Shown here one piece after another: positions 17,223 to 28,330 of a stretch of 64,000 nt of DNA (the first letter of the stretch is position 1; each line of letters starts with the position of its first letter). Both the position numbers and the translations under genes were made by a program. The notes under the pieces are model-generated. The model had not been told where the DNA came from and did not search any database. It was given only the letters and a program-made list of their open reading frames with translations. Origin of the DNA: Pyrodictiaceae archaeon. GTDB taxonomy: Archaea > Thermoproteota > Thermoprotei_A > Sulfolobales > WANQ01. The stretch lies in the NCBI GenBank assembly GCA_015521735.1, contig WANQ01000023.1:63169-127168 (forward strand), given 5' to 3'.

Positions 17223-17834
17223 GTGGAATATAACTGTGTACTTAAAACAATACTTGATAGAGTATCCATTAGAAAATTCAAGTATGAGTCAATACCATTA
17301 GATATAGTTCAACGTATTATTGAAGCAGGTATACGTGCTCCTACAGCTGGTGGTGGTGAGGAGTGGTTCTTTATCATAGTATTATCTGAAGCTAAGCGTA
17401 GAAGAATACATGAGTTATTAAAGAAAGCACACATATTATACGCTGAGAAATTGTTACGTAGACCATTAAGTAGGAGTAGACTTGAGAAATGGATTAAGCT
17501 TATGGAGGAAGGCCAGTATCTTGCACCAGTATACATTGCAGGATACATTGATTTAAGAAACCCCTTGTACTCTAATGAATACCGTGAACTAGAAGAACTA
17601 TGGGCTCATCAAAGTATTGCTGCAGCATTCGAGAACATGATCTTAGCGGCATGGAGTATGGGTTTAGGTTCAGTATGGTTAGGAGTACCATTACTTCTAG
17701 AAGAAGAGTTTAATAAAGTACTTGAACCTCCAAAAGGACTTAAGTTAGCTGGCATAATAGCATTAGGTTATCCGGATGAGCGCCCAAGGCCTAGGAAGAG
17801 GAAGAGTTTAGAAGAGGTCTCCAAGATAATTTAA
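17223..17834 (+). CDS. nitroreductase family protein
   Basis: RVSIRKFKYESIPLDIVQRIIEAGIRAPTAGGGEEW is the typical nitroreductase N-terminus. Confidence 0.75.
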   Translation: MEYNCVLKTILDRVSIRKFKYESIPLDIVQRIIEAGIRAPTAGGGEEWFFIIVLSEAKRRRIHELLKKAHILYAEKLLRRPLSRSRLEKWIKLMEEGQYLAPVYIAGYIDLRNPLYSNEYRELEELWAHQSIAAAFENMILAAWSMGLGSVWLGVPLLLEEEFNKVLEPPKGLKLAGIIALGYPDERPRPRKRKSLEEVSKII

Positions 17835-18744
17835 CTTCTCTATCCGGTATTAAATGTACTCCATCACATGTTTTAGCGTTAAACCATTCTTTACTTACAA
17901 GTCCTTCTCTACACGTAGCATATTCTAATCCCCTCTTCCTAGCAGCCTCTATAACTGGTTTAAGGAGCTTTTTACGTAACTGTATTGGGAGATACCAGTA
18001 TCCATGCATCCATGTTCCCTCAACTCTGTATAGTTTATGGAATTTGCTTGCTAGTTCTGGGAAGGCATTCATCATGCGTCTGAGGTTATCTGGTCTAGCC
18101 TTATACGTTGATGTTACTATGAATCTTACACCTATATTGGCTAAAGCATCTACTAGCTCATCTATCATCTTGGGATCATCGTTTAGGAAAGGTATTATTG
18201 GGTCAACTCTAACACCTACTGGTACACCATTTTCCACTAGTTTTCTGAGTGCTTTAAGTCTAGCACTAGGAGGTGGAGCATTTGGCTCTATTTTCCTAGC
18301 AAGACTATTGTCTAGTGTAGTAATTGTCATGGTTACAGCAACTCTACCCTTAGATAACAGGTCAACATCTCTTGTTACGAGTACGCCTTTAGTTACAATT
18401 AAAACCCTATAGCCACGAGGCAATAGTATCTCAAGGGTTCTCCTAGTTAACCTATATTCTTCTTCTTCTGGTGGATAAGGATCACTACTATTACTCATAC
18501 TTATGGGTACTCTAGGATCAGCTCTTCTTAAATCCATTAAAAGCCTATTCACAAAGTTTTTCTTTGGTATACTCTTGCGTACCCTTATATAACTAGTAGC
18601 ATAACAGTATAAGCATTGATGACTACACCCGGTATAGGGTTGAAGACTGTATTTGAATGGACACGTGCAAAGCTCGCTTCTCCAAGGATCAAATACTGAT
18701 AGTACTCCTCCCCTACCTATGTATGGACTCTTATACTTAGCCAC
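17791..18744 (-). CDS. radical SAM protein (SplB/'DNA repair photolyase'-like class)
   Basis: YTGCSHQCLYCYA carries the CxxxCxxC motif. Its 3' end overlaps the convergent nitroreductase gene by 44 nt. Confidence 0.75.
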   Translation of the reverse strand: MAKYKSPYIGRGGVLSVFDPWRSELCTCPFKYSLQPYTGCSHQCLYCYATSYIRVRKSIPKKNFVNRLLMDLRRADPRVPISMSNSSDPYPPEEEEYRLTRRTLEILLPRGYRVLIVTKGVLVTRDVDLLSKGRVAVTMTITTLDNSLARKIEPNAPPPSARLKALRKLVENGVPVGVRVDPIIPFLNDDPKMIDELVDALANIGVRFIVTSTYKARPDNLRRMMNAFPELASKFHKLYRVEGTWMHGYWYLPIQLRKKLLKPVIEAARKRGLEYATCREGLVSKEWFNAKTCDGVHLIPDREVKLSWRPLLNSSSS

Positions 18745-19005: not shown

Positions 19006-19932
19006 ATGGTTTGGCGAACTATTTTCCCAGTATTCATGGTGGTTATGATACTAGCATTATTACCTGTAACAGTATTTGCTCAAGACGAAGGTATACGTAT
19101 AACATCGTATACACTATACTACTATGAGGGCCCAAAAGTTGAAACACCATATCTTCTAGCAGGTAAAGCGTATAAAGCACAGCTTACAATAGAAATGGGC
19201 CCAAAGACTCCACCAAACGTACCAGTTATTGTTGAAACCGATCTAGCAAGCTATCGTGGTGGTGAAATATTTATTGTAAAGGAGGCCAATGTAGAATACA
19301 ATACTAGTGAGAATAAGCTATTATTCATAGCTAAGCCTGGCGGTAAAATATCATTAGAGATAACTGGTATGATACCAAGCGATGTAACTGTTAAGGAAGT
19401 TAATGGACTAGAACTACACTATAAGGTTGTTTTAAGTGTTGTTAAAATGTACTATGCAAACAATCCTACTACTCCCATAGATGAGAAGAGGTATGACGTA
19501 ATAGACGAGGTTATGGAAGAATACTATAAGCTAGTTAACGAGAAGAAGAAGCTACTAGACATACCTGACACCGATGAAACCTGGAGGACTATGGTTAAGG
19601 GAATGATAAGTTTAGCTGATAAGTATGCTTCAAGAGGCCTAGTCTTAGAAGCCTTAGACATACTTAAAGCTATACCCGATAAACCTATAACTAAGCCACC
19701 TGAAGGAAAAGATACAATGTACTACATGATTATGGGTGTATTAGCCGTAGTAATGATTGTAGCAATAGTAATGTGGGTGAGGGCTACGGGTAAGGCAAAG
19801 TTCCTTGAAGAAAAACTAGAAGGCATAGTAGGAGATTTGGAAGCTATTAGCGTAAGAGTTGAGAAGCTAGATAAACGTGTAGCAGGAGAGTTAAGAGACA
19901 TCATAGATAGAGTTAAATCCGTGTTATCCTAG
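19006..19932 (+). CDS. type-I membrane protein: signal peptide, extracellular beta-rich domain, one TM helix, short cytoplasmic coiled coil
   Basis: The N-terminal signal is MVWRTIFPVFMVVMILALLPVTVFAQ. The TM helix is MYYMIMGVLAVVMIVAIVMWV. The C-terminus KFLEEKLEGIVGDLEAISVRVEKLDKRV is heptad-like. The gene ends 21 nt before the FtsZ/tubulin-like gene. Confidence 0.6.
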   Translation: MVWRTIFPVFMVVMILALLPVTVFAQDEGIRITSYTLYYYEGPKVETPYLLAGKAYKAQLTIEMGPKTPPNVPVIVETDLASYRGGEIFIVKEANVEYNTSENKLLFIAKPGGKISLEITGMIPSDVTVKEVNGLELHYKVVLSVVKMYYANNPTTPIDEKRYDVIDEVMEEYYKLVNEKKKLLDIPDTDETWRTMVKGMISLADKYASRGLVLEALDILKAIPDKPITKPPEGKDTMYYMIMGVLAVVMIVAIVMWVRATGKAKFLEEKLEGIVGDLEAISVRVEKLDKRVAGELRDIIDRVKSVLS

Positions 19933-19953
19933 TATAAATTCATTAACTACTAG

Positions 19954-22587
19954 GTGTCTAGCACGTTGACTACCCCTAAGGTTTTCGCAACCCTCCACCC
20001 CATTGGTCTTGGTGGAGCAGGTACTAACGTAGTAGAAACATACATTAGGGATAGGAGGGTTATTGAAAGAATAGCAAGTGTAGAGGACTTATACGTAGCA
20101 GTGTTAGCAATAGACGTAGCTGATGGAGATATACGTAAACTACAGGCTACAAGAGAAATAGTGTTAAGAGAGCTTAGGCAAAGAGGAATATCAACTAGTA
20201 GGCTTAGAGTTATAGCTGAATCAGTTAAATTCCCCTCACCAGAAGCAATGTTTGACTTCATATATACTAAGTACCCTGACTTCCTAAGACTTGACGGTGT
20301 AGCAATAGATAAGGAGAAGTATAAACCTATAGTAACAACATCTATAGACATACCTCCACTTGCTGGAGGAGTAGCTAGGAAAAGATCTTTATCTAAGAGT
20401 ATCTACGCGTTAAACTACTACCAGCTAGAGACCATTAAGAGAATGATAGAAGAATACAAGGATACAATGGTTAGGAATCCTGGAAGCAATATCTCAGTAA
20501 TAGTCTTCGGCTTAGGAGGTGGAACAGGTAGCGGCATAGTAGTGGACTTTGCAAGACATCTAAGAAAACATGTAGGTGAAGCAGTACCAATAATAGGCAT
20601 AAGTATTCTACCAGTTGAAGCGGATGACCCTAACGTTAAGGTTGCAGGATACATAGCCCTAAAAGAACTAGGATTCATACTAAGTCCAAGAAGAAATAAG
20701 TGGGTTGTGGAAAAGTTCGGTAAAGTCTACGAAAACCCATTCTACGCGTTCTTCTTCATCCCAATGAAGCCAGTATACAATAAGCTTGGAAGCCTACAGC
20801 TAACACATGAAGTAGTAGACTCTGAAATAGTAGACATGCTTCACACCATAGCATCAATAGACATAGCTGACGCCCTAGACCACCTACAATCTGGTAAGAT
20901 GGACGATGAATCGTACATAACAGTTACAAGGTTAATGAAAGTCTACTACCCAATAGACAAGTATATAGAAATATTGAAGTATAAGCTTGAAATAGTTGAA
21001 ACACTAGCAAGACTAGTTGAATCTAAGATTAAAGCAATAGAATCACTAATAAACATACTTGAAGACACTCGTACTAAGCTACTAAAACTATACGAAGAAC
21101 ACCTTAGAGCAACTGGAAGATATAGTGAAGACGCTGTAAAAGAACTAGTTAATAGCATTAAATCTACTCCACAATACTCTAGAAACGTCTTAATGAAGGC
21201 AAGAGACATAAAAGTCTCTGTAGAAGACATTGTTAAGTCACTATACGATATAATAGCTAACATGGAGGTTAAGGAAGGTACAACAGAGTATAATATAATA
21301 GAAATGGTACGTAAATTAAACGAGCTCATGGGTAGAGCTGAAGAAGATGTTGAAGCCTTTAGCGCAACAGTTGAATCACTTGTAGACGACTTGAAAGGCA
21401 TAATAATTAGTGCTCCAAGGTTCACCCCCGAACAGAAGTCATTGATTAATGCTTTCGCTGAACTAGCTAGACTACTTGCAAGATCATTCTACTTCATACA
21501 ATTATACGTTGATGTAACAGAGCTAGCTAAAACAATACATAGCATCATAGGTGAAGAATCTAGAAAACTTGTAGAAGAAGCACGATCAGAAGCTAATACA
21601 TTACTACAAGCGGTAAACGCTCTAATGGCTGGACCAGGAGAGGAGTCTAAGCTAGCTGAAAGCGTAGTAATAGCTTTATCAGGTACTATAAGGAGGATAG
21701 AGGAAGAGTTAAAGATTAAAGAAGACGAAAGAGATAGGCTGGAGTCAAGGATAAGAAAGCTTAGAGTAGAAGCTGACCAATTACGCTCAAAGCTAAGGGG
21801 CATACTACCATTCGGTAAGGGTAAGATTAAGGCTAGGCTACGTGAACTAGAAATACAGTTACGTAGACTAGAAGAAGAATTAAGTGTATTAAGGGACGAG
21901 TACGACGAGTTGAAGAAGAAATTCGATATACTAGACAGTATACGTAGACTATACTCAGTTGCTAGCGAGTACCGTAAAAGCATTGAGAAGATAGGTGAAC
22001 TTGAGAGAAAATTCAATGAAGAGTTGTCAAGGATTACTAGGTTAGAGAAAGTATTTACACGAGTAGCAGAGCTAAGCCATCAGGAACAGATTAAGATCTT
22101 GGAGAAACTGTTAACAGGTAGGGTAGAGGAGCTTAGAAGAGAAGAAGCATTAATGAGAATACTAGATAAGGAGAGATTCAATAGGTTCATGAGAACAGTT
22201 ATCGGTCAGCTCAAGAACCCAACAGTACTAGGAGTTAAACCAGGATTCCGAACTGATCGCATATGGGTTACAGTACTATCACCTAGAGGGTTATGGAGTG
22301 ATGACCTACGTAAAGAGGTTGAAGCAGCACTAGCAGGGTATATTGAGGGTGAGGTTAGTAGATGTATAGCTTTCCGTGAAGCAGCACCAATAGATCCATG
22401 GACTATAAGCTTACTAATAATGGTTGGCAAGGTTAAGCCACAAGACCTAGACATATACGATGTACTAAAACATAGCTATGAGGCAAGTAATCCTAGAGAT
22501 AGAGAATTCATGAGAAGCTTCCTAAAAGAATGGGGCTATACGCTCGAAGCACTAGAAGAAATGTATAAGTCAAGTAGTATCAGGTAA
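19954..22587 (+). CDS. tubulin/FtsZ-superfamily GTPase domain fused to a long coiled coil and a C-terminal globular domain
   Basis: Motifs found: GLGGAGTN (aa 18-25), AIDVADG (aa 52-58), GGGTGSG (aa 188-194, nt 20515-20535, the exact tubulin signature), IIGISILPVEAD, and SIDIADALD (aa 301-309, T7-like). Residues about 335-745 are E/K/R/L heptad-rich. Confidence 0.75.
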   Translation: MSSTLTTPKVFATLHPIGLGGAGTNVVETYIRDRRVIERIASVEDLYVAVLAIDVADGDIRKLQATREIVLRELRQRGISTSRLRVIAESVKFPSPEAMFDFIYTKYPDFLRLDGVAIDKEKYKPIVTTSIDIPPLAGGVARKRSLSKSIYALNYYQLETIKRMIEEYKDTMVRNPGSNISVIVFGLGGGTGSGIVVDFARHLRKHVGEAVPIIGISILPVEADDPNVKVAGYIALKELGFILSPRRNKWVVEKFGKVYENPFYAFFFIPMKPVYNKLGSLQLTHEVVDSEIVDMLHTIASIDIADALDHLQSGKMDDESYITVTRLMKVYYPIDKYIEILKYKLEIVETLARLVESKIKAIESLINILEDTRTKLLKLYEEHLRATGRYSEDAVKELVNSIKSTPQYSRNVLMKARDIKVSVEDIVKSLYDIIANMEVKEGTTEYNIIEMVRKLNELMGRAEEDVEAFSATVESLVDDLKGIIISAPRFTPEQKSLINAFAELARLLARSFYFIQLYVDVTELAKTIHSIIGEESRKLVEEARSEANTLLQAVNALMAGPGEESKLAESVVIALSGTIRRIEEELKIKEDERDRLESRIRKLRVEADQLRSKLRGILPFGKGKIKARLRELEIQLRRLEEELSVLRDEYDELKKKFDILDSIRRLYSVASEYRKSIEKIGELERKFNEELSRITRLEKVFTRVAELSHQEQIKILEKLLTGRVEELRREEALMRILDKERFNRFMRTVIGQLKNPTVLGVKPGFRTDRIWVTVLSPRGLWSDDLRKEVEAALAGYIEGEVSRCIAFREAAPIDPWTISLLIMVGKVKPQDLDIYDVLKHSYEASNPRDREFMRSFLKEWGYTLEALEEMYKSSSIR

Positions 22588-22589
22588 AC

Positions 22590-23597
22590 TTATTCTTCTT
22601 CAAGTAGAAGACTTCTCCTATACTCTACGTAGGCTTTTTTAAGATGCCCTAACACCTTATCCACTAGTTCAGGGCTAAGCCTCTCAAGTAATACTAGATT
22701 AACTCTACGTACACTACCAAACCTTGAATTAGAATAGTCTATGCTCATGCTAACCAAGTTCTTAAACTTACCGTAAACCCATTCATTAAAGGCTAGCTTC
22801 AAGTCATCATACCTAAGATTCACCCTGGGTTCAGCTCTAACAACAAGCATAACTGCGTCGCCATCCCAAGTCCAAGGAGTCATAAGTGTTCCTAGCTCTA
22901 ATGCCTTAAGTAATCCTTCTACGCCATTATATAGCGGTATACTAGCACCCGTAAGCCCCGCCATAACCCATATCCTTGAATCCCTCCACCTAAGAGCTTC
23001 TTGAAGGAATAATGCTTTACCACTAACAATACTAGCCACCAGCTCACCTAAACCACTATACCTATAAACATATTCACCGTCAAGACCTAAGCCTACGAAC
23101 TCTGCTATTCTTCTAGGACTAACAGCTACTATAGCGTCAACAAGATTCTCATTACTTACACGTGTAATCCAAGAATACGTTAAAGCCTTAATCTCTATAG
23201 GTGAGCCAGGCCCAGGGGTTATCAACAACACTAATACTTTACCATCGCTAACCCTTTTACGGTATTCTCGTAGAATCCTATAGAGTATGGGTGCTTCTTC
23301 ACGTCTATTAAATTCTGCTACAACTACAAGTATCTTAGAGTAAGGTATGTGTTTCTTAAATAACTCATAGTATTCAACACTACTAGCATACCATGGATCA
23401 ACTAGTTTAACATCTACTCCAACATATTTTGAATGATCTCTTACAAACAATACAGCATAATCTTGGTCAAAACCCCACCTATTTACACGTTCGCATAGCT
23501 CTGAAGCTTCCTTAGAAACAACTATAATACTTAAATCCCTTACCCTAGGCTTAAAAGAGTCCCCTAATACTTTAATGAATTCTGTAATGCTCTCCAA
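22590..23597 (-). CDS. hypothetical protein; possibly a degenerate FtsZ/tubulin-fold paralogue lacking the glycine GTP-binding motifs
   Basis: 335 aa. The pattern of strands and helices is co-linear with FtsZ (LSIIVVSKE / AVLFVRDH / KILVVVAEFNRREEAPILYRIL / VLVLLITPGPGSP...VDAIVAVSP / IWVMAGLTG...AVMLVVRAEP...NLVLLERL), but no GGGTGxG is present. It sits tail-to-tail with 19954..22587 across a 2-nt gap. Confidence 0.5.
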   Translation of the reverse strand: MESITEFIKVLGDSFKPRVRDLSIIVVSKEASELCERVNRWGFDQDYAVLFVRDHSKYVGVDVKLVDPWYASSVEYYELFKKHIPYSKILVVVAEFNRREEAPILYRILREYRKRVSDGKVLVLLITPGPGSPIEIKALTYSWITRVSNENLVDAIVAVSPRRIAEFVGLGLDGEYVYRYSGLGELVASIVSGKALFLQEALRWRDSRIWVMAGLTGASIPLYNGVEGLLKALELGTLMTPWTWDGDAVMLVVRAEPRVNLRYDDLKLAFNEWVYGKFKNLVSMSIDYSNSRFGSVRRVNLVLLERLSPELVDKVLGHLKKAYVEYRRSLLLEEE

Positions 23598-23780
23598 CTT
23601 AACTAGCCCCTAAACACTTTAACTCATTACCGGGTTAGCTAGATCTAATACCGTGTTGTATTATAACCTTATGTTATATTTAAGGATGTCTTTATTAGGA
23701 ATAACCTAGGAACTAGTAAGTAGAAACCACTAGGAGTACGTGGCTCTCATCCAGTAATATAATACTACTAAGCTACTAAG

Positions 23781-26348
23781 GTGTTATGCGTGGGGCTTAT
23801 AGAGAGTACTAAAAGGTATGGTCCAAGAATACTAGCAGCTATATCATCGTTCTTATTCATAGTTTGGGGTTCTAGCCAGGTACCCTTGCTCTCAGTATTC
23901 CTTGAGCCACGTGGGCTATTATTATCAGTAACCTTGGGTGTAATTGCTGGAGTACTATCATACATGAACCGTAACCGTGTCTCAGCATTCATAGCTACGC
24001 TACTTGTAGTAGGTGGTCTCCTCTACCATATAATGTACTTTTACGTAGTTAAAGCATCTATACCCGTAGAAATAGCATCATCTTATCCAGCAATATACGA
24101 GATGCTCTCAGATCCTTTATCAAGAGTACTTTATGCTTCAGTAGCTATCTCAGCCTTTATTGTTGCGCTTATTATTGCTGCTACAATAAAGCATCCGCTA
24201 GAGCTTATATCATATTATATTAGCTTGACTGCTCTACTCCTATTCATAACACCTTATGCGTATCTCTCAATACCACTCTTATTCGCTGCACTTAGTGCTG
24301 CAAGAGTTGTTGGTGCTAAAAGCATTAAGGGCTTAGGACTATTCTTCTTAATATACTTCTCACTACTACTCCCAATACACGTATCATACATTATGACCAA
24401 CTATGGGTTAAGAGAATCCAATGGAGATCCAACAATGGCTGTTCTCTATGCCATAGGCTACTACTCCATTCAAGGTAATAGGAGTATTCCAGTATTTGAT
24501 AAGATAAATAAGAGTGAGGTCGTACACGGAGAACTACTATTATCGGCAAGGCTATCAGAACTTGTAGCTAAATTCCGTACGGGGAGCCTTAGGCCTAAGC
24601 TCGAGGACTTTACTAACCTACCATACGATGAAGTTAGAGATAGACTTGCAGCATCACTTGTTGTTGCAGCTAATAGGGTAATAGCAGACTATAGTATTCC
24701 TCTAACCATAGCTATGTCAACTATATGGTTTGGCTTAGGTTTAGGTCTAGCATTCTACTCTTACGCTAGTAGGCAAATACAGAAGCTAATACTAGGCATA
24801 CTTCGTAGAGCTGAAAACATAATAGCACTAATTGCCTCAACCATAGCTTTACCTCTAATTGTAGTAGTAACCTTGTGGATAGGTTTAGCTTTAGGGGTGT
24901 ACTTCTTTACAGCTCTATCACCATTAGGCTATGAATCACCTATAATTATAGGTAATACGCTTATCTTATTACATGGACTCCTAGTAATACTAGGAATAGT
25001 GTATCCACCATACGTGTTTAACACCTTCCCAACACTCCTAAAACTAGGAGAAGAATTTAGGAAGAGATATCTCTCTACACTTGAAGCATTACTTGATAAG
25101 GTTAGTATCCTAAGAGGTTCGCTAGTTAAAATTCTAGATCTAGCCAAGACAGAACAAGCAGCATTTAAGAAGATAGACCTAGAACTAGTAAGCCTTGAAG
25201 AAGATCTTGTATCAAAGTTTAACTGGGTTAGAATAGCTAAAAGCCTAGACATACTTAGGAGTAAACTTGAAGGATACATTGGGGCTGTTTCAGATAAGTA
25301 TGGTATGCTAGAACTGCAACTAGTAGAAGAGCTTAGAAGAGTATTTAATATAAGGTATACTACGCTCAACGAAGCAGTAAATATTGCTAGAGAGCTAGGT
25401 GCAGTCGTAGAAATACCTGAAAACCTTGCTAAAGTAAAGCCGGATAAAATGATGATAATGGAGTTAATAGAAGCATTAAGAGAACTAAATAGGGCAGCTA
25501 ATAAAGTAGTAGAAGTGCTAACTAATCAATACGAAGAAATGGGTAAAAGCCTAGCATTATTAGATCCTGAAGGAGAAGAAATACTTAGAAGTGTTAAAGC
25601 AGATGTTGAAAGCATTAAGTCTAACCTAGACTATGACCCTCATGTAGCATTAGATTTAGCTCTAAAAACAATAGTAAGATTCCGTGATGCTTACTACGAA
25701 AGATTAATGAGCTTGTGGAAAACTCTTGTAGAACAGTTATCTGGAACCATAGATGAAGTGGAGAAATTACTTAGTGAGAGTATCTTCATAGAAGACATTA
25801 TTAGAGATCAATTATTATCTTTAGTACGTGAAGCTAAGAACCATTTAGTAGTAGAAATAGGTGATATAAGTACATTATCTAAGAAGATTAGTGGTGTTAG
25901 GACAAGTATTTTAGAGCTAGTGGAGAAAACCATCGACTTAATAGAATCGGAGTCATTAAAGGCTTCAAAACTAGTAGGAGTAGAAAAAGCGATCATACTA
26001 GACTTATCCGGTATACCAGCAAACTATGCAGTAGAGATAAGACATACATTAAAGCTTATTACATCTAGGACGGGTGTACGTGCATTTATGGAGCTTACAG
26101 AACTCATGAAGAGAAGTATAGAGTACCTAAACCAAATAAGTATTGCTCGTGAAAGATGTGCTAACTTCTGGATAGCTCGTAGAGTAATAGATAAAGCTAT
26201 AATAGAGGGTAGATGTATTAGTATAGATGAGTTACCATTCACTAAAGATCATTCTAGATGGATGATGAAACTATATGCTAGAATACATTATACGGATACA
26301 GTAATGGAGTTAAAGGATGGAGTTGAACATATTTGTCCTAGGCGCTAA
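23781..26348 (+). CDS. large polytopic membrane protein (about 10-12 TM helices, aa 1-415) with a 440-aa cytoplasmic helical domain
   Basis: Many hydrophobic segments run up to aa 415, and the rest is helical E/K/L-rich. It is divergent from 22590..23597. TAATATAATA lies at 23755-23764. The start could be GTG 23781 or the in-frame GTG 23790. Confidence 0.65.
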   Translation: MLCVGLIESTKRYGPRILAAISSFLFIVWGSSQVPLLSVFLEPRGLLLSVTLGVIAGVLSYMNRNRVSAFIATLLVVGGLLYHIMYFYVVKASIPVEIASSYPAIYEMLSDPLSRVLYASVAISAFIVALIIAATIKHPLELISYYISLTALLLFITPYAYLSIPLLFAALSAARVVGAKSIKGLGLFFLIYFSLLLPIHVSYIMTNYGLRESNGDPTMAVLYAIGYYSIQGNRSIPVFDKINKSEVVHGELLLSARLSELVAKFRTGSLRPKLEDFTNLPYDEVRDRLAASLVVAANRVIADYSIPLTIAMSTIWFGLGLGLAFYSYASRQIQKLILGILRRAENIIALIASTIALPLIVVVTLWIGLALGVYFFTALSPLGYESPIIIGNTLILLHGLLVILGIVYPPYVFNTFPTLLKLGEEFRKRYLSTLEALLDKVSILRGSLVKILDLAKTEQAAFKKIDLELVSLEEDLVSKFNWVRIAKSLDILRSKLEGYIGAVSDKYGMLELQLVEELRRVFNIRYTTLNEAVNIARELGAVVEIPENLAKVKPDKMMIMELIEALRELNRAANKVVEVLTNQYEEMGKSLALLDPEGEEILRSVKADVESIKSNLDYDPHVALDLALKTIVRFRDAYYERLMSLWKTLVEQLSGTIDEVEKLLSESIFIEDIIRDQLLSLVREAKNHLVVEIGDISTLSKKISGVRTSILELVEKTIDLIESESLKASKLVGVEKAIILDLSGIPANYAVEIRHTLKLITSRTGVRAFMELTELMKRSIEYLNQISIARERCANFWIARRVIDKAIIEGRCISIDELPFTKDHSRWMMKLYARIHYTDTVMELKDGVEHICPRR

Positions 26349-26377
26349 AGAGAATTGTTGAAGAGAGGTGACAACTA

Positions 26378-27268
26378 TTGATTAAATTCAAAGCTCCTAA
26401 ATCCCGTGAAAAGTTTGAGGAACCATTATGTATTTACGATAATAGACGAGTTACATTAACTATAATAGATAGTAGGCTGCAGTTGGTTGAGAAGAAGTTT
26501 TTATCAAAACACGTTGTACTAGAAATAGAGCTTAATCATTTAGAGGAAGTATCAATTAGTAATGGATCTCTAATATTCACTTTAGATGATGGTAGTACTC
26601 TGAACTTGCTCAATTGCCAAAACGTTGAAAACATAGTAGAATACGCTAAGAGAATTGTAGAGGAGAAAGCGATAAATAAGCGTATAGTAGAATATGAGAA
26701 AAAGCTTTACAGTAAAGCTTTAGAAGCATTCTATGACATTAAGAGGCTTATAGTAGAGGTATATCCAGCAATAGTGGATGTAGCGAGAATGCTTAGGGAT
26801 ATACCTAATTATGAAGGAGCTATTGGTAAAGCTAATCACCTGGCATCGCTTGTAGATGAAGCAGCCGATATAGTTAGGGCGCTGAGAGCGTATGATTCAC
26901 TTAAAGCTCACAGATTACTAGTTGAATTGTCAAAAAAGCTGTACGAGGATACTATCATTAGAATAAGAGAGGTGAATTTAGGGAAGGATGTTGAAGAATA
27001 CTTGTTGAAGGCGTTGGATTTAGGAGTACTACTAAACGTGTTGATAGCTAAGATATATGTGGGCAAAAACTATAAGGATGAACTAGAGAAAGCTAAAATT
27101 CTTACTAAAGAGGTTGCAGGTTTTGATCCAGGCTTACCTGAGTCTCCTAGGCCAGAACACTTATACGATAAGCTCAGTAATATCATGGATAGAGTTGAGG
27201 AAAAGTTCAAAGAGCTAGCTAAGTCCAAGGCTCATGAGGAAGCTGTAAGAACGGTCAGGGAAGGTTAA
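26378..27268 (+). CDS. hypothetical protein: small N-terminal beta domain (PH-like?) plus a helical domain
   Basis: 296-aa ORF with a TTG start, 29 nt after the preceding gene. aa 20-95 alternate as beta-strands capped by a helix and the remainder is helical. Confidence 0.55.
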   Translation: MIKFKAPKSREKFEEPLCIYDNRRVTLTIIDSRLQLVEKKFLSKHVVLEIELNHLEEVSISNGSLIFTLDDGSTLNLLNCQNVENIVEYAKRIVEEKAINKRIVEYEKKLYSKALEAFYDIKRLIVEVYPAIVDVARMLRDIPNYEGAIGKANHLASLVDEAADIVRALRAYDSLKAHRLLVELSKKLYEDTIIRIREVNLGKDVEEYLLKALDLGVLLNVLIAKIYVGKNYKDELEKAKILTKEVAGFDPGLPESPRPEHLYDKLSNIMDRVEEKFKELAKSKAHEEAVRTVREG

Positions 27269-27295: not shown

Positions 27296-28330
27296 ATGCC
27301 AGTGGTAATAATATACAAGTTATTGGAGAGTATTCTAAGACTCATAATGAAGCCTACTAGAAGTAGGTTATTTCTAGCATCAATTATTGTTGTAACATTA
27401 GCATTGATTAGTGCTACAGCCTTTTACCTAGCTGAGAGAAATGCATGGGCTAGTAGTGGTGAGGAATTAACCTTTGCTAAAGCATTGTATTGGAGTATTA
27501 TAACCATGGCGACAGTGGGTTATGGGGATATAGTGCCACATACCAGTGCTGGTAGACTAGTAGCAGCCTTTACATCCATTTTCGGCATAGCAGCTTATAG
27601 CTTACTTGTAGCGATTGTTGCAGAACAGTTTTTGTCCCATATGGTTAAAAAGACTCTCGGGTTGGCGTGGTTGAAGAACATAGACATAGTTGTTATAGGA
27701 GATGGAGAGGAATGCGCTGAAACAATAGCAGAACTAAAACGTAACATGCCTGGTAAGAAGATAGCATGGATTACAAGTCAGCAACCCAAGATAACAGTTG
27801 ACGTAGACTATGCTGTAGGAAGCCTAGTAGACTCAGAAACTCTTAGGAGAGGTGGAGTAGAGAAATCAAAGTACGTAGTAATATGCCATCACGATGACTC
27901 TCAGAGCATACATATAGCGTTACTTGCTAAGAAGCTTAACCCTAAAGCAAGAATAATAGTACTAGCACATTCTTCTAAAACAGTAGAAATACTGGAGGCG
28001 GCAGGAGTACAATACATAGTACCAACAACTATTATGGCAAGAGTACTAGCGAGCATGGTCTTTGAACCAAACGTAGCAGTACTTGTAAGTGATCTCACAA
28101 CAGCTAAGGGCATAAGTGACCTAGTAGAACTCGAGACAGACAAGTATATGAGGCTAAGCTTTAAGGAAGCACTACTTAAAGCTAAAGAAGAGGAAGGGGT
28201 ATTACTGGTCGGAGTTGTTAAAAGAGATGGAAGGATAATAGTAAACCCGCCACTGGATTACAGGATAGGGGAAGGAGAAAAACTACTAGCGATAAAAGGT
28301 ACGGGTAGCCTCACGAAAATAGTAAAGTAG
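27296..28330 (+). CDS. potassium channel (2-TM pore) with RCK/TrkA-N and TrkA-C domains (MthK-like)
   Basis: The selectivity filter is TMATVGYGD. An RCK Rossmann start DIVVIGDGE follows, and the C-terminus VKRDGRIIVNPPLDYRIGEGEKLLAIKG is TrkA-C-like. Confidence 0.85.
   Translation: MPVVIIYKLLESILRLIMKPTRSRLFLASIIVVTLALISATAFYLAERNAWASSGEELTFAKALYWSIITMATVGYGDIVPHTSAGRLVAAFTSIFGIAAYSLLVAIVAEQFLSHMVKKTLGLAWLKNIDIVVIGDGEECAETIAELKRNMPGKKIAWITSQQPKITVDVDYAVGSLVDSETLRRGGVEKSKYVVICHHDDSQSIHIALLAKKLNPKARIIVLAHSSKTVEILEAAGVQYIVPTTIMARVLASMVFEPNVAVLVSDLTTAKGISDLVELETDKYMRLSFKEALLKAKEEEGVLLVGVVKRDGRIIVNPPLDYRIGEGEKLLAIKGTGSLTKIVK

Follow-up and report, generated by a model that had tools for sequence, protein, structure and literature searches.

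A tubulin/FtsZ-fold protein lacking GTP-binding loops and its neighboring FtsZl1-type GTPase in a Pyrodictiaceae archaeon

What might a tubulin-like protein do when its GTP-binding loops are gone and it is encoded next to an intact GTPase? The question is raised by a stretch of 64,000 nucleotides from a Pyrodictiaceae archaeon (contig WANQ01000023.1 of assembly GCA_015521735.1, positions 63,169 to 127,168; the whole stretch is called the window here, and its G+C content is about 38-42%), in which the gene for a 335-amino-acid (aa) protein, p335, lies tail-to-tail with the gene for an 877-aa GTPase, tub877. A sequence-only reading of the window had laid p335 segment by segment onto the secondary-structure pattern of FtsZ, had remarked that the glycine-rich nucleotide-binding loops were missing and had proposed that the locus encodes a pair made of an active and a pseudo-GTPase, while conceding that the pattern might be a coincidental alternation of alpha and beta elements. 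The analysis described here leads us to give a probability of roughly 0.6 to p335 being a non-catalytic tubulin-fold subunit of a membrane module centered on the FtsZl1-type GTPase. The two genes in question are the following:

22590..23597, minus strand: p335, a 335-aa protein of the tubulin/FtsZ fold without GTP-binding loops (open reading frame [ORF], structural model, CetZ match and selection analysis)
19954..22587, plus strand: tub877, an FtsZl1-type GTPase with a tubulin-like N-domain followed by a coiled coil and a helical C-terminal domain (PF13809, E 3.6e-12)

Gene, fold and family of p335

The tail-to-tail arrangement was read correctly, with a gap of 2 bases between the ends of the two genes. 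The p335 frame starts with TTG, and no competing ORF of at least 60 aa was found on the other strand or overlapping it. Homologues with intact frames were present in 6 of 61 related genomes, every one in the window's own family, where they occurred in G000 and G001 of one genus, in all four genomes of a second and in neither of the two genomes of a third. These homologous loci belong to metagenome-assembled genomes of uncultured Desulfurococcales or Thermoprotei, and the sequencing runs listed for the locus (19900-26400) comprise no RNA run and eight DNA runs, the latter from three hydrothermal vent metagenome studies. The ratio of nonsynonymous to synonymous substitutions (dN/dS) among three close homologues was 0.02 to 0.07 at a dS of about 0.2, after the misaligned rows of unequal length from G006 were dropped. 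With codon-aligned sequences of G002 and G007, p335 had a ratio of 0.022, compared with 0.014 in the GTPase, 0.024 in the membrane protein encoded on the other side of p335 and 0.102 in a flanking radical-SAM gene. These values mark p335 as a genuine gene that is subject to strong purifying selection.

The AlphaFold2 (AF2) model of p335, built from an 11-row alignment of the close clade (A1), had a mean predicted local distance difference test (pLDDT) score of 83.0 and a predicted TM score (pTM) of 0.86. The N-domain of the model consists of S1 (residues 20-26), H1 (32-39), S2 (45-50), S4 (87-95), H4 (101-115), S5 (120-126) and S6 (155-159), followed by H7 (179-191), H8 (196-201) and a C-terminal beta/alpha domain running from S7 (209-219) to S10 (298-306), and no coiled-coil region was seen in it. 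Foldseek searches of the PDB gave CetZ (3zid_B) as the best match (E 5.7e-12, TM score 0.64), and all of the matches listed were CetZ, tubulin or FtsZ chains. VIA-align placed CetZ 3zid_A at Z 23.3 (290 aa, 3.8 A) and tubulins, OdinTubulin and BtubA/B at Z values of about 22-23, in every case covering residues 19-334. A search independent of Foldseek, through 48,161 PDB representatives, returned the tubulin/FtsZ superfamily in all of the top 16 positions, from Z 23.0 (CetZ, 289 aa, 3.4 A, residues 19-335) down to 14.5 (PhiKZ TubZ); below them stood Rossmann-type enzymes at Z values of 10.6 or less, with only about 170 residues covered. Given that superfamily chains lead and Rossmann folds drop to Z 10.6, the model does not show an unrelated Rossmann-like fold, and coincidental alpha/beta periodicity is at odds with superfamily matches that extend over both domains. 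The model thus predicts a complete two-domain tubulin/FtsZ fold, that is, a Rossmann-like N-domain, the core helix H7 and a C-terminal beta/alpha domain.

Sequence identity between p335 and CetZ was 8-15%. Searched alone, p335 had no Pfam match beyond noise (PF22129, E 0.2), including none to PF00091 or PF13809, no match in NCBIfam or PADLOC and only three unrelated phmmer matches in the PDB (E 0.5-2.4); the close-clade profile A1 likewise had no PDB match. The ESM Atlas provided leads only, namely, phage TubZ-like clusters (0.85-0.87) and two Bathyarchaeota clusters (0.89). When distant relatives were included in a joint profile (A2), all 26 PDB matches at an E value of ≤10 belonged to the tubulin superfamily, among them CetZ 3zid_A (4.8e-5), Asgard AtubB2 (0.006), gamma-tubulin (0.007) and TubZ (0.008). 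The hidden Markov model (HMM) alignment put the S4-T4-H4-S5-T5-S6 region of the family on the CetZ 3zid_A segment 'VMTSVSGGTGSS...IAVLPFREEG...MILVDNQYL'. Along similar lines, hhalign matched the wider family to 29 canonical archaeal FtsZ sequences in 180 collinear columns that reach from T4 to S8 (P 2.1e-4, probability 46%), and two relatives had PF00091 matches of 18.4 and 13.9 bits, below the gathering cut-off of 33 bits. The AF2 secondary structure, the CetZ HMM alignment and hhalign agree with the segment-by-segment mapping onto FtsZ made earlier by eye, and the FtsZ/tubulin fold proposed with it is now backed by the model and by independent sequence profiles.

The close family of p335 is tiny (5 matches in 5.8 billion clusters and 3 representatives at an E value of ≤0.001 in 1.84 billion). 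A 1,779-aa protein, P0008, also matched residues 136-193 (E 5.5e-4) in eight matched stretches; it could have internal repeats, or the match could be fortuitous. The wide family comprises at least 299 proteins at an E value of ≤0.001; all 120 listed members are without a Pfam domain, and those that are named are called "hypothetical." Around relatives of the GTPase elsewhere in the phylum, 10 loci were fetched, and in 9 of them, a partner gene of 319 to 580 aa was found at a conserved position. In five loci (type A), the partner gene meets that of the GTPase tail-to-tail and diverges from the gene of an about 800-aa membrane protein, while in the other four (type B), it follows the membrane protein gene. 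Among 204 proteins, the A1 profile found eight of the nine counterparts, those of type A at 1.5e-10 to 3.3e-5 and three of the four of type B at 1.6e-4 to 7e-3; the ninth (L033) aligned collinearly with the family. The A4 model, in turn, scored p335 of G000 at 2.6e-105. p335 belongs with this family by profile as well as by gene neighborhood, its neighbors being an FtsZl1-type GTPase and a membrane protein of the about 800-aa kind. Some type A partners have long acidic low-complexity extensions, of about 230 aa at the N terminus (L036:11057-12799) or about 80 aa at the C terminus (L035:11661-13040).

These data bear on the view that p335 has no function, either because it is what remains of a duplicated tubulin-like gene in decay or because it shows a chance alpha/beta pattern. 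The loss of the GTP motifs and the tiny close family would suit it, but the low dN/dS values and the structural match to CetZ contradict it, as do the intact frames in all six genomes that have the gene and the collinearity with the wide family (at least 299 proteins), so that we consider it highly improbable.

Lost GTP loops and the neighboring GTPase

Three sites within p335 correspond to functional positions of the superfamily:

23505..23519, minus strand: T1-loop position, residues 27-31 (VSKEA), between S1 and H1 (translation, AF2 loop and motif table)
23295..23312, minus strand: T4-loop position, residues 96-101 (FNRREE), where GGGTG(S/T)G would be expected (translation; register with the T4 loops of CetZ, the GTPase and FtsZ)
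22998..23000, minus strand: Glu200 (E200) in helix H8, which follows the T7 loop; possible equivalent of the acidic residue that acts in catalysis in FtsZ and alpha-tubulin (alignment)

The T1 loop of FtsZ reads GGGGxN. Neither the T1 nor the T4 position of p335 retains a signature glycine, which agrees with the earlier statement that the glycine-rich nucleotide loops are absent, with the nuance that the T5 region still reads TPGPGSP. At T1, the p335 clade has VSKEA and the type A relatives have CIGEYP (type B was not scored), versus GLGGAGTN in the neighboring GTPase. At T4, the p335 clade reads (A)EFNRREE(A), type A reads S(S/A)(I/V)WDG(V/I)GSA, and type B reads AGVAGD, versus GLGGGTGSG in the GTPase. 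On the basis of this comparison, the p335 clade is the most degenerate of the three family clades. The register was supported by hhalign, which set AEFNRREEAP of p335 opposite FGLGGGTGSG of the neighboring GTPase and also opposite the corresponding FtsZ segment of archaea. The T4 replacement is, at the same time, the most conserved segment of the p335 clade (mean majority frequency of 0.94, versus 0.67 overall) and contains two invariant glutamates, E100 and E101, at the phosphate position. Such conservation means that the pocket has been rewritten under constraint rather than left to decay. Judging from these motifs, p335 most likely does not bind GTP.

Position 200 is Glu in 34 of the 37 rows of alignment A4 (27 of them type A kin), the exceptions being two type B rows with Arg and the G001 copy with Ile. 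In a low-confidence hhalign alignment, E200 falls one position before the second Asp of the FtsZ DFAD motif, and Arg203 falls on an FtsZ Arg.

The rewritten pocket might instead accommodate a nucleotide or another ligand in a noncanonical manner, p335 forming filaments of its own as a second, independent cytoskeletal polymer. In favor of this are the complete two-domain fold, the conservation of the rewritten T4 segment, which indicates that the pocket has a function, and the remnant of the signature, DG(V/I)GSA, in type A relatives. However, the T1 and T4 positions are without glycine, invariant glutamates occupy the phosphate-binding position, p335 itself has no sequence match in Pfam, NCBIfam or the PDB, and the strict genomic linkage to an intact GTPase (see below) would be unexpected for a free-standing polymer. 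We therefore regard an autonomous p335 polymer as unlikely.

The situation is reversed in tub877. Residues invariant in its family include G18, G20, G23 and N25 of T1, G186 to G194 of T4, and D303 and D306 of the DxxD motif in T7. In the AF2 model of residues 1-345 (19954-20988; pLDDT 81.2), S1 to S6, H7 and H8 are present, whereas a C-terminal beta domain is missing ahead of the coiled coil. Its Foldseek matches to FtsZ and CetZ (E 4.5e-6, TM score 0.45-0.50) were weaker than those of p335. With its modeled GTPase domain lacking the C-terminal domain, the intact GTPase appears structurally less complete than its GTP-loop-less neighbor. In this genome, tub877 is the only PF00091 match, with a score below the cut-off, and no canonical FtsZ was found by the PF00091 search. 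At least 629 relatives of tub877, about 885 aa long, were detected, in Bathyarchaeota, Nitrososphaeria, Methanomethylicota, Geothermarchaeales and Dehalococcoidia.

The membrane module and the possible role of p335

Besides p335 and tub877, the conserved module of five genes includes the following features:

19006..19932, plus strand: p308, single-pass membrane protein and first gene of the module, with an N-terminal signal or transmembrane segment (residues 6-24), a transmembrane segment (240-258) and a short coiled-coil tail (hydropathy scan)
23598..23780, no strand: A+T-rich spacer of 183 bp between the divergent genes p335 and mem855 (sequence)
23781..26348, plus strand: mem855, an 855-aa protein with about 9 to 11 transmembrane segments in its first 406 aa, followed by a helical/coiled-coil, cytoplasmic region of about 450 aa (hydropathy scan)
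26378..27268, plus strand: p296, the module's last gene, for a soluble helical protein whose N terminus gives a weak PH-like signal (bPH_3, E 0.062)

The start of p335 is thus 183 bases from that of mem855, and the spacer presumably holds the promoters of both; a scan for sigma-70 promoters and terminators was uninformative for an archaeon. In 9 of the 10 fetched loci, a p308 homologue precedes the GTPase gene (8 by blastp and that of L038 by position only), and mem855 has counterparts of about 800 aa in 9 of the 10, with 23-29% identity over about 700 aa. p296, for which the ESM Atlas gave weak PH-like leads only, has homologues after mem855 in G001 and G002. On its two sides, the module has a radical-SAM gene (17791-18744; PF04055, 1.2e-15) and what looks, by eye, like a gene for a K+ channel with a TrkA-like domain (27296-28330); both flanks are kept in G001 and G002 but do not belong to the module elsewhere, in other families. 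In G001 (L007:13877-16085), masked bases break the channel-like gene and the next, aminoacyl-tRNA-synthetase-like ORF.

The association between the two tubulin-like genes was measured in 401 genomes drawn evenly from the phylum, with a cut-off for the partner of an E value of ≤1e-5. The GTPase was present in 16 genomes and the partner profile in 17, with both in 15; in 14 of these 15, the two genes were on one contig and within about 6 kb, while in G271, they were on two contigs. The partner-only genomes, G169 and G253, had weak cross-matches (26-31 bits): the ORF in G253 is a bona fide FtsZ homologue (PF00091, 1.6e-18), and the match in G169 shares its stretch with a PF00091 match. In the family to which the window belongs, the full module was found in G002 and G007, G004 has a 5'-open ORF at the GTPase position, and the contig of G006 ends within the partner gene. 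Pairwise identities of GTPase and partner were correlated (r = 0.89, 55 pairs), although the sequences are kin and the pairs therefore not independent. Identities for the GTPase, partner and membrane protein were 84, 49 and 47% between G000 and G002 and 79-87, 50-61 and 44-47% within type A, the partner and membrane protein evolving about twice as fast as the GTPase. In G086, an FtsZl1-type variant of about 960 aa (L037:8408-11290) has no partner, p308 or membrane protein next door, and the gene downstream of it (410 aa) is Orc1/Cdc6-like by eye.

Genome G001, which belongs to the same genus as the window and is 95% complete, represents a natural loss: p308 and the GTPase are absent from both the locus and the genome, while the p335 homologue, mem855 and p296 are retained. 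The p335 copy of G001 (L007:9483-10520) is an open, conserved frame of 338 codons in which Ile replaces Glu200. Its terminal branch is 0.95 long, compared with 0.14-0.19 in its clade mates, and its first 54 codons include no ATG, GTG or TTG. Either the start is unusual or the protein is truncated to 284 aa, which would remove S1-H1-S2. The case is consistent with relaxed constraint on p335 once the GTPase has gone, the gene not being discarded at once.

It can also be turned around, since the genes that persist together in G001 are p335, mem855 and p296. p335 might work mainly with mem855 (and p296) and serve the cytoplasmic coiled-coil domain of mem855 as a scaffold or adaptor, its link to the GTPase being only indirect, through a shared pathway and with no tubulin-type contact. 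The divergence of p335 and mem855 from one spacer, the position of the type B partner gene after the membrane protein gene instead of the GTPase gene, and the similar rates of partner and membrane protein, both faster than the GTPase, all agree with such a role. Nevertheless, the copy in G001 looks relaxed, with its long branch, the loss of Glu200 and no canonical start for the N-terminal 54 codons. Moreover, p335 retains the full fold and has conserved residues on both longitudinal faces, as a tubulin-tubulin contact would need (W69, P128 and G174 on one and E200 and W273 on the other, assigned by secondary-structure position only). A role confined to mem855 thus seems to us rather improbable.

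As for the origin of p335, the similarity of its family to the neighboring GTPase by hhalign (P 4.3e-4) was no better than that to FtsZ, and for that reason, we do not claim duplication from the neighbor. In a tree of 39 rows, subsampled from alignments A3 and A4 and the 29 FtsZ sequences, a single branch separated the three partner clades from the FtsZ and GTPase domains (ultrafast bootstrap [UFBoot] of 86, Shimodaira-Hasegawa-like approximate likelihood ratio test [SH-aLRT] of 89), with a long-branch warning from the tool. Neither result supports p335 as a recent duplicate of the GTPase gene beside it.

We return to p335 as a non-catalytic subunit of the FtsZl1-centered module. The gene association, with the partner present in 15 of the 16 genomes that have the GTPase and nearly always close by, supports the proposed pairing of an active with a pseudo-GTPase as far as gene association goes, with G001 and G086 as exceptions. 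In mechanistic terms, p335 would bind the GTPase domain by a longitudinal contact of the tubulin type, and this docking could nucleate, cap or tune the GTP-dependent assembly of the GTPase; Glu200 in H8 might be inserted into the GTP site of the partner, and the membrane proteins of the module would tie the assembly to the membrane. p335 might accordingly be the second half of a heterodimer, a cap or a regulator.

Several observations weigh against this proposal. The input for the p335 model was shallow (11 rows), and the five AF2 models spread in pLDDT from 45 to 83. The p335 profile matched that of the neighboring GTPase weakly (hhalign probability of 34% over 82 columns). The GTPase has its own DxxD motif in T7 and hence no obvious need for a foreign activating residue, and the equation of E200 with the catalytic residue comes from a low-confidence alignment that is one position off, with Arg in two of the four type B relatives. 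Co-occurrence is not absolute, G086 having a GTPase variant without a partner, and the 16 GTPase genomes fall into only six families of one phylum and are not independent events. Finally, the persistence of p335 with mem855 and p296 but without the GTPase in G001 makes a role independent of the GTPase possible.

A bolder version, to which we attach a low probability, is a split tubulin machine. The 877-aa protein would be the nucleotide-binding half on a coiled-coil stalk, and the nucleotide-free p335 would supply a full tubulin body whose T7/H8 face, with Glu200, completes or gates the active site of the partner; in that case, the heterodimer would be required for GTP hydrolysis and for assembly at the membrane. 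Such an archaeal division of labor between an active and an inactive subunit would have an origin separate from that of alpha/beta-tubulin, in a lineage where no canonical FtsZ was found.

Comparison with known systems

CetZ (PDB 3zid, 4b45 and 4b46) is the best structural match of p335, and no PDB sequence scored better with the family profile. The two proteins are of similar length, and their two domains are arranged alike, with a helix at the C terminus. CetZ differs in that its PDB chains contain GDP or GTPgS, according to the entry titles, and in its SGGTGSS signature, at which p335 has FNRREE, with a T1 that has no glycine. Given the absent GTP signature and the low sequence identity, p335 does not qualify as a GTP-binding protein of the CetZ clade, CetZ being its closest structure only. 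Unlike p335, CetZ is not known to be tied to an FtsZl1 module.

A different relationship connects the family to the thaumarchaeal-type FtsZ homologues of 314 to 326 aa (the 314-aa ORF at L044:6513-7457 in G253 and another at G169:C37:6017-6463) that were cross-matched by its profile. By eye, their T4 is partly degenerate (LAGKSGAA), but in contrast to p335, they match PF00091 (E 1.6e-18) and keep a GLGGAG T1. No FtsZl1 gene was found in either genome.

The architecture of FtsZl1, Pfam Tubulin_2 (PF13809), to which tub877 conforms, is set out in the passages on this protein by Makarova & Koonin (2010; PMC2875224), where it is stated that no C-terminal FtsZ domain could be detected in FtsZl1; our model of tub877 agrees. 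The paper also predicts a multicomponent membrane-remodeling system and names as uncharacterized archaeal neighbors A1, a "mixed alpha and beta" family (MA2713), and A2, a membrane protein (MA2710). The published family A1 may be identical to the p335 family. Elsewhere, Tubulin_2 proteins appear as the divergent "FtsZ-like" sequences that root a tree (in the part of PMC9871819 dealing with that tree), and FtsZL1 is mentioned in Sulfolobales (in a passage of PMC9723716). Although p335 and FtsZl1 belong to the same superfamily, p335 has no PF13809 match, coiled coil or GTP loops, and its C-terminal tubulin domain has no counterpart in the FtsZl1 model. Published FtsZl1 operons include a vWA protein, a P-loop GTPase and kinases, none of which was seen in this module, and in the full-text literature searched, we found no description of a GTP-loop-less FtsZl1 partner. 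With the module described here, the hypothesis of membrane remodeling by FtsZl1 gains a defined, testable five-protein core in Thermoproteota, these Desulfurococcales included.

ARC3 of plant chloroplasts can be likened to p335 in that it contains an FtsZ-like domain and acts on FtsZ assembly, not as a polymerizing GTPase. The domain scheme of ARC3 is given in the legend to Fig. 2 of PMC12232670. ARC3 differs from p335 in being eukaryotic and in having middle and MORN domains, and the relation is at the superfamily level only. The FtsZ-like domain of ARC3 is not known to have GTPase activity.

The heterodimeric tubulins (alpha/beta-tubulin, BtubA/B and the Asgard AtubA/B) resemble the present pair most directly in their genetics, with two tubulin-fold proteins encoded together and a possible division of labor between a hydrolyzing and a nonhydrolyzing subunit; their chains match the p335 model at Z values of 21-23. 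In all three, both subunits bind GTP. For AtubAB, nucleotide is referred to in the corresponding passage of PMC13394414. The pair described here, known from genes and models, differs in that p335 has no recognizable site, while the GTPase lacks the C-terminal domain and has a coiled coil. The tubulin superfamily is defined by GTP-driven assembly, and p335, together with a GTPase devoid of the C-terminal domain, would be a prokaryotic pair of active and inactive tubulins, with a bearing on the rise of heterodimeric tubulins and their regulators.

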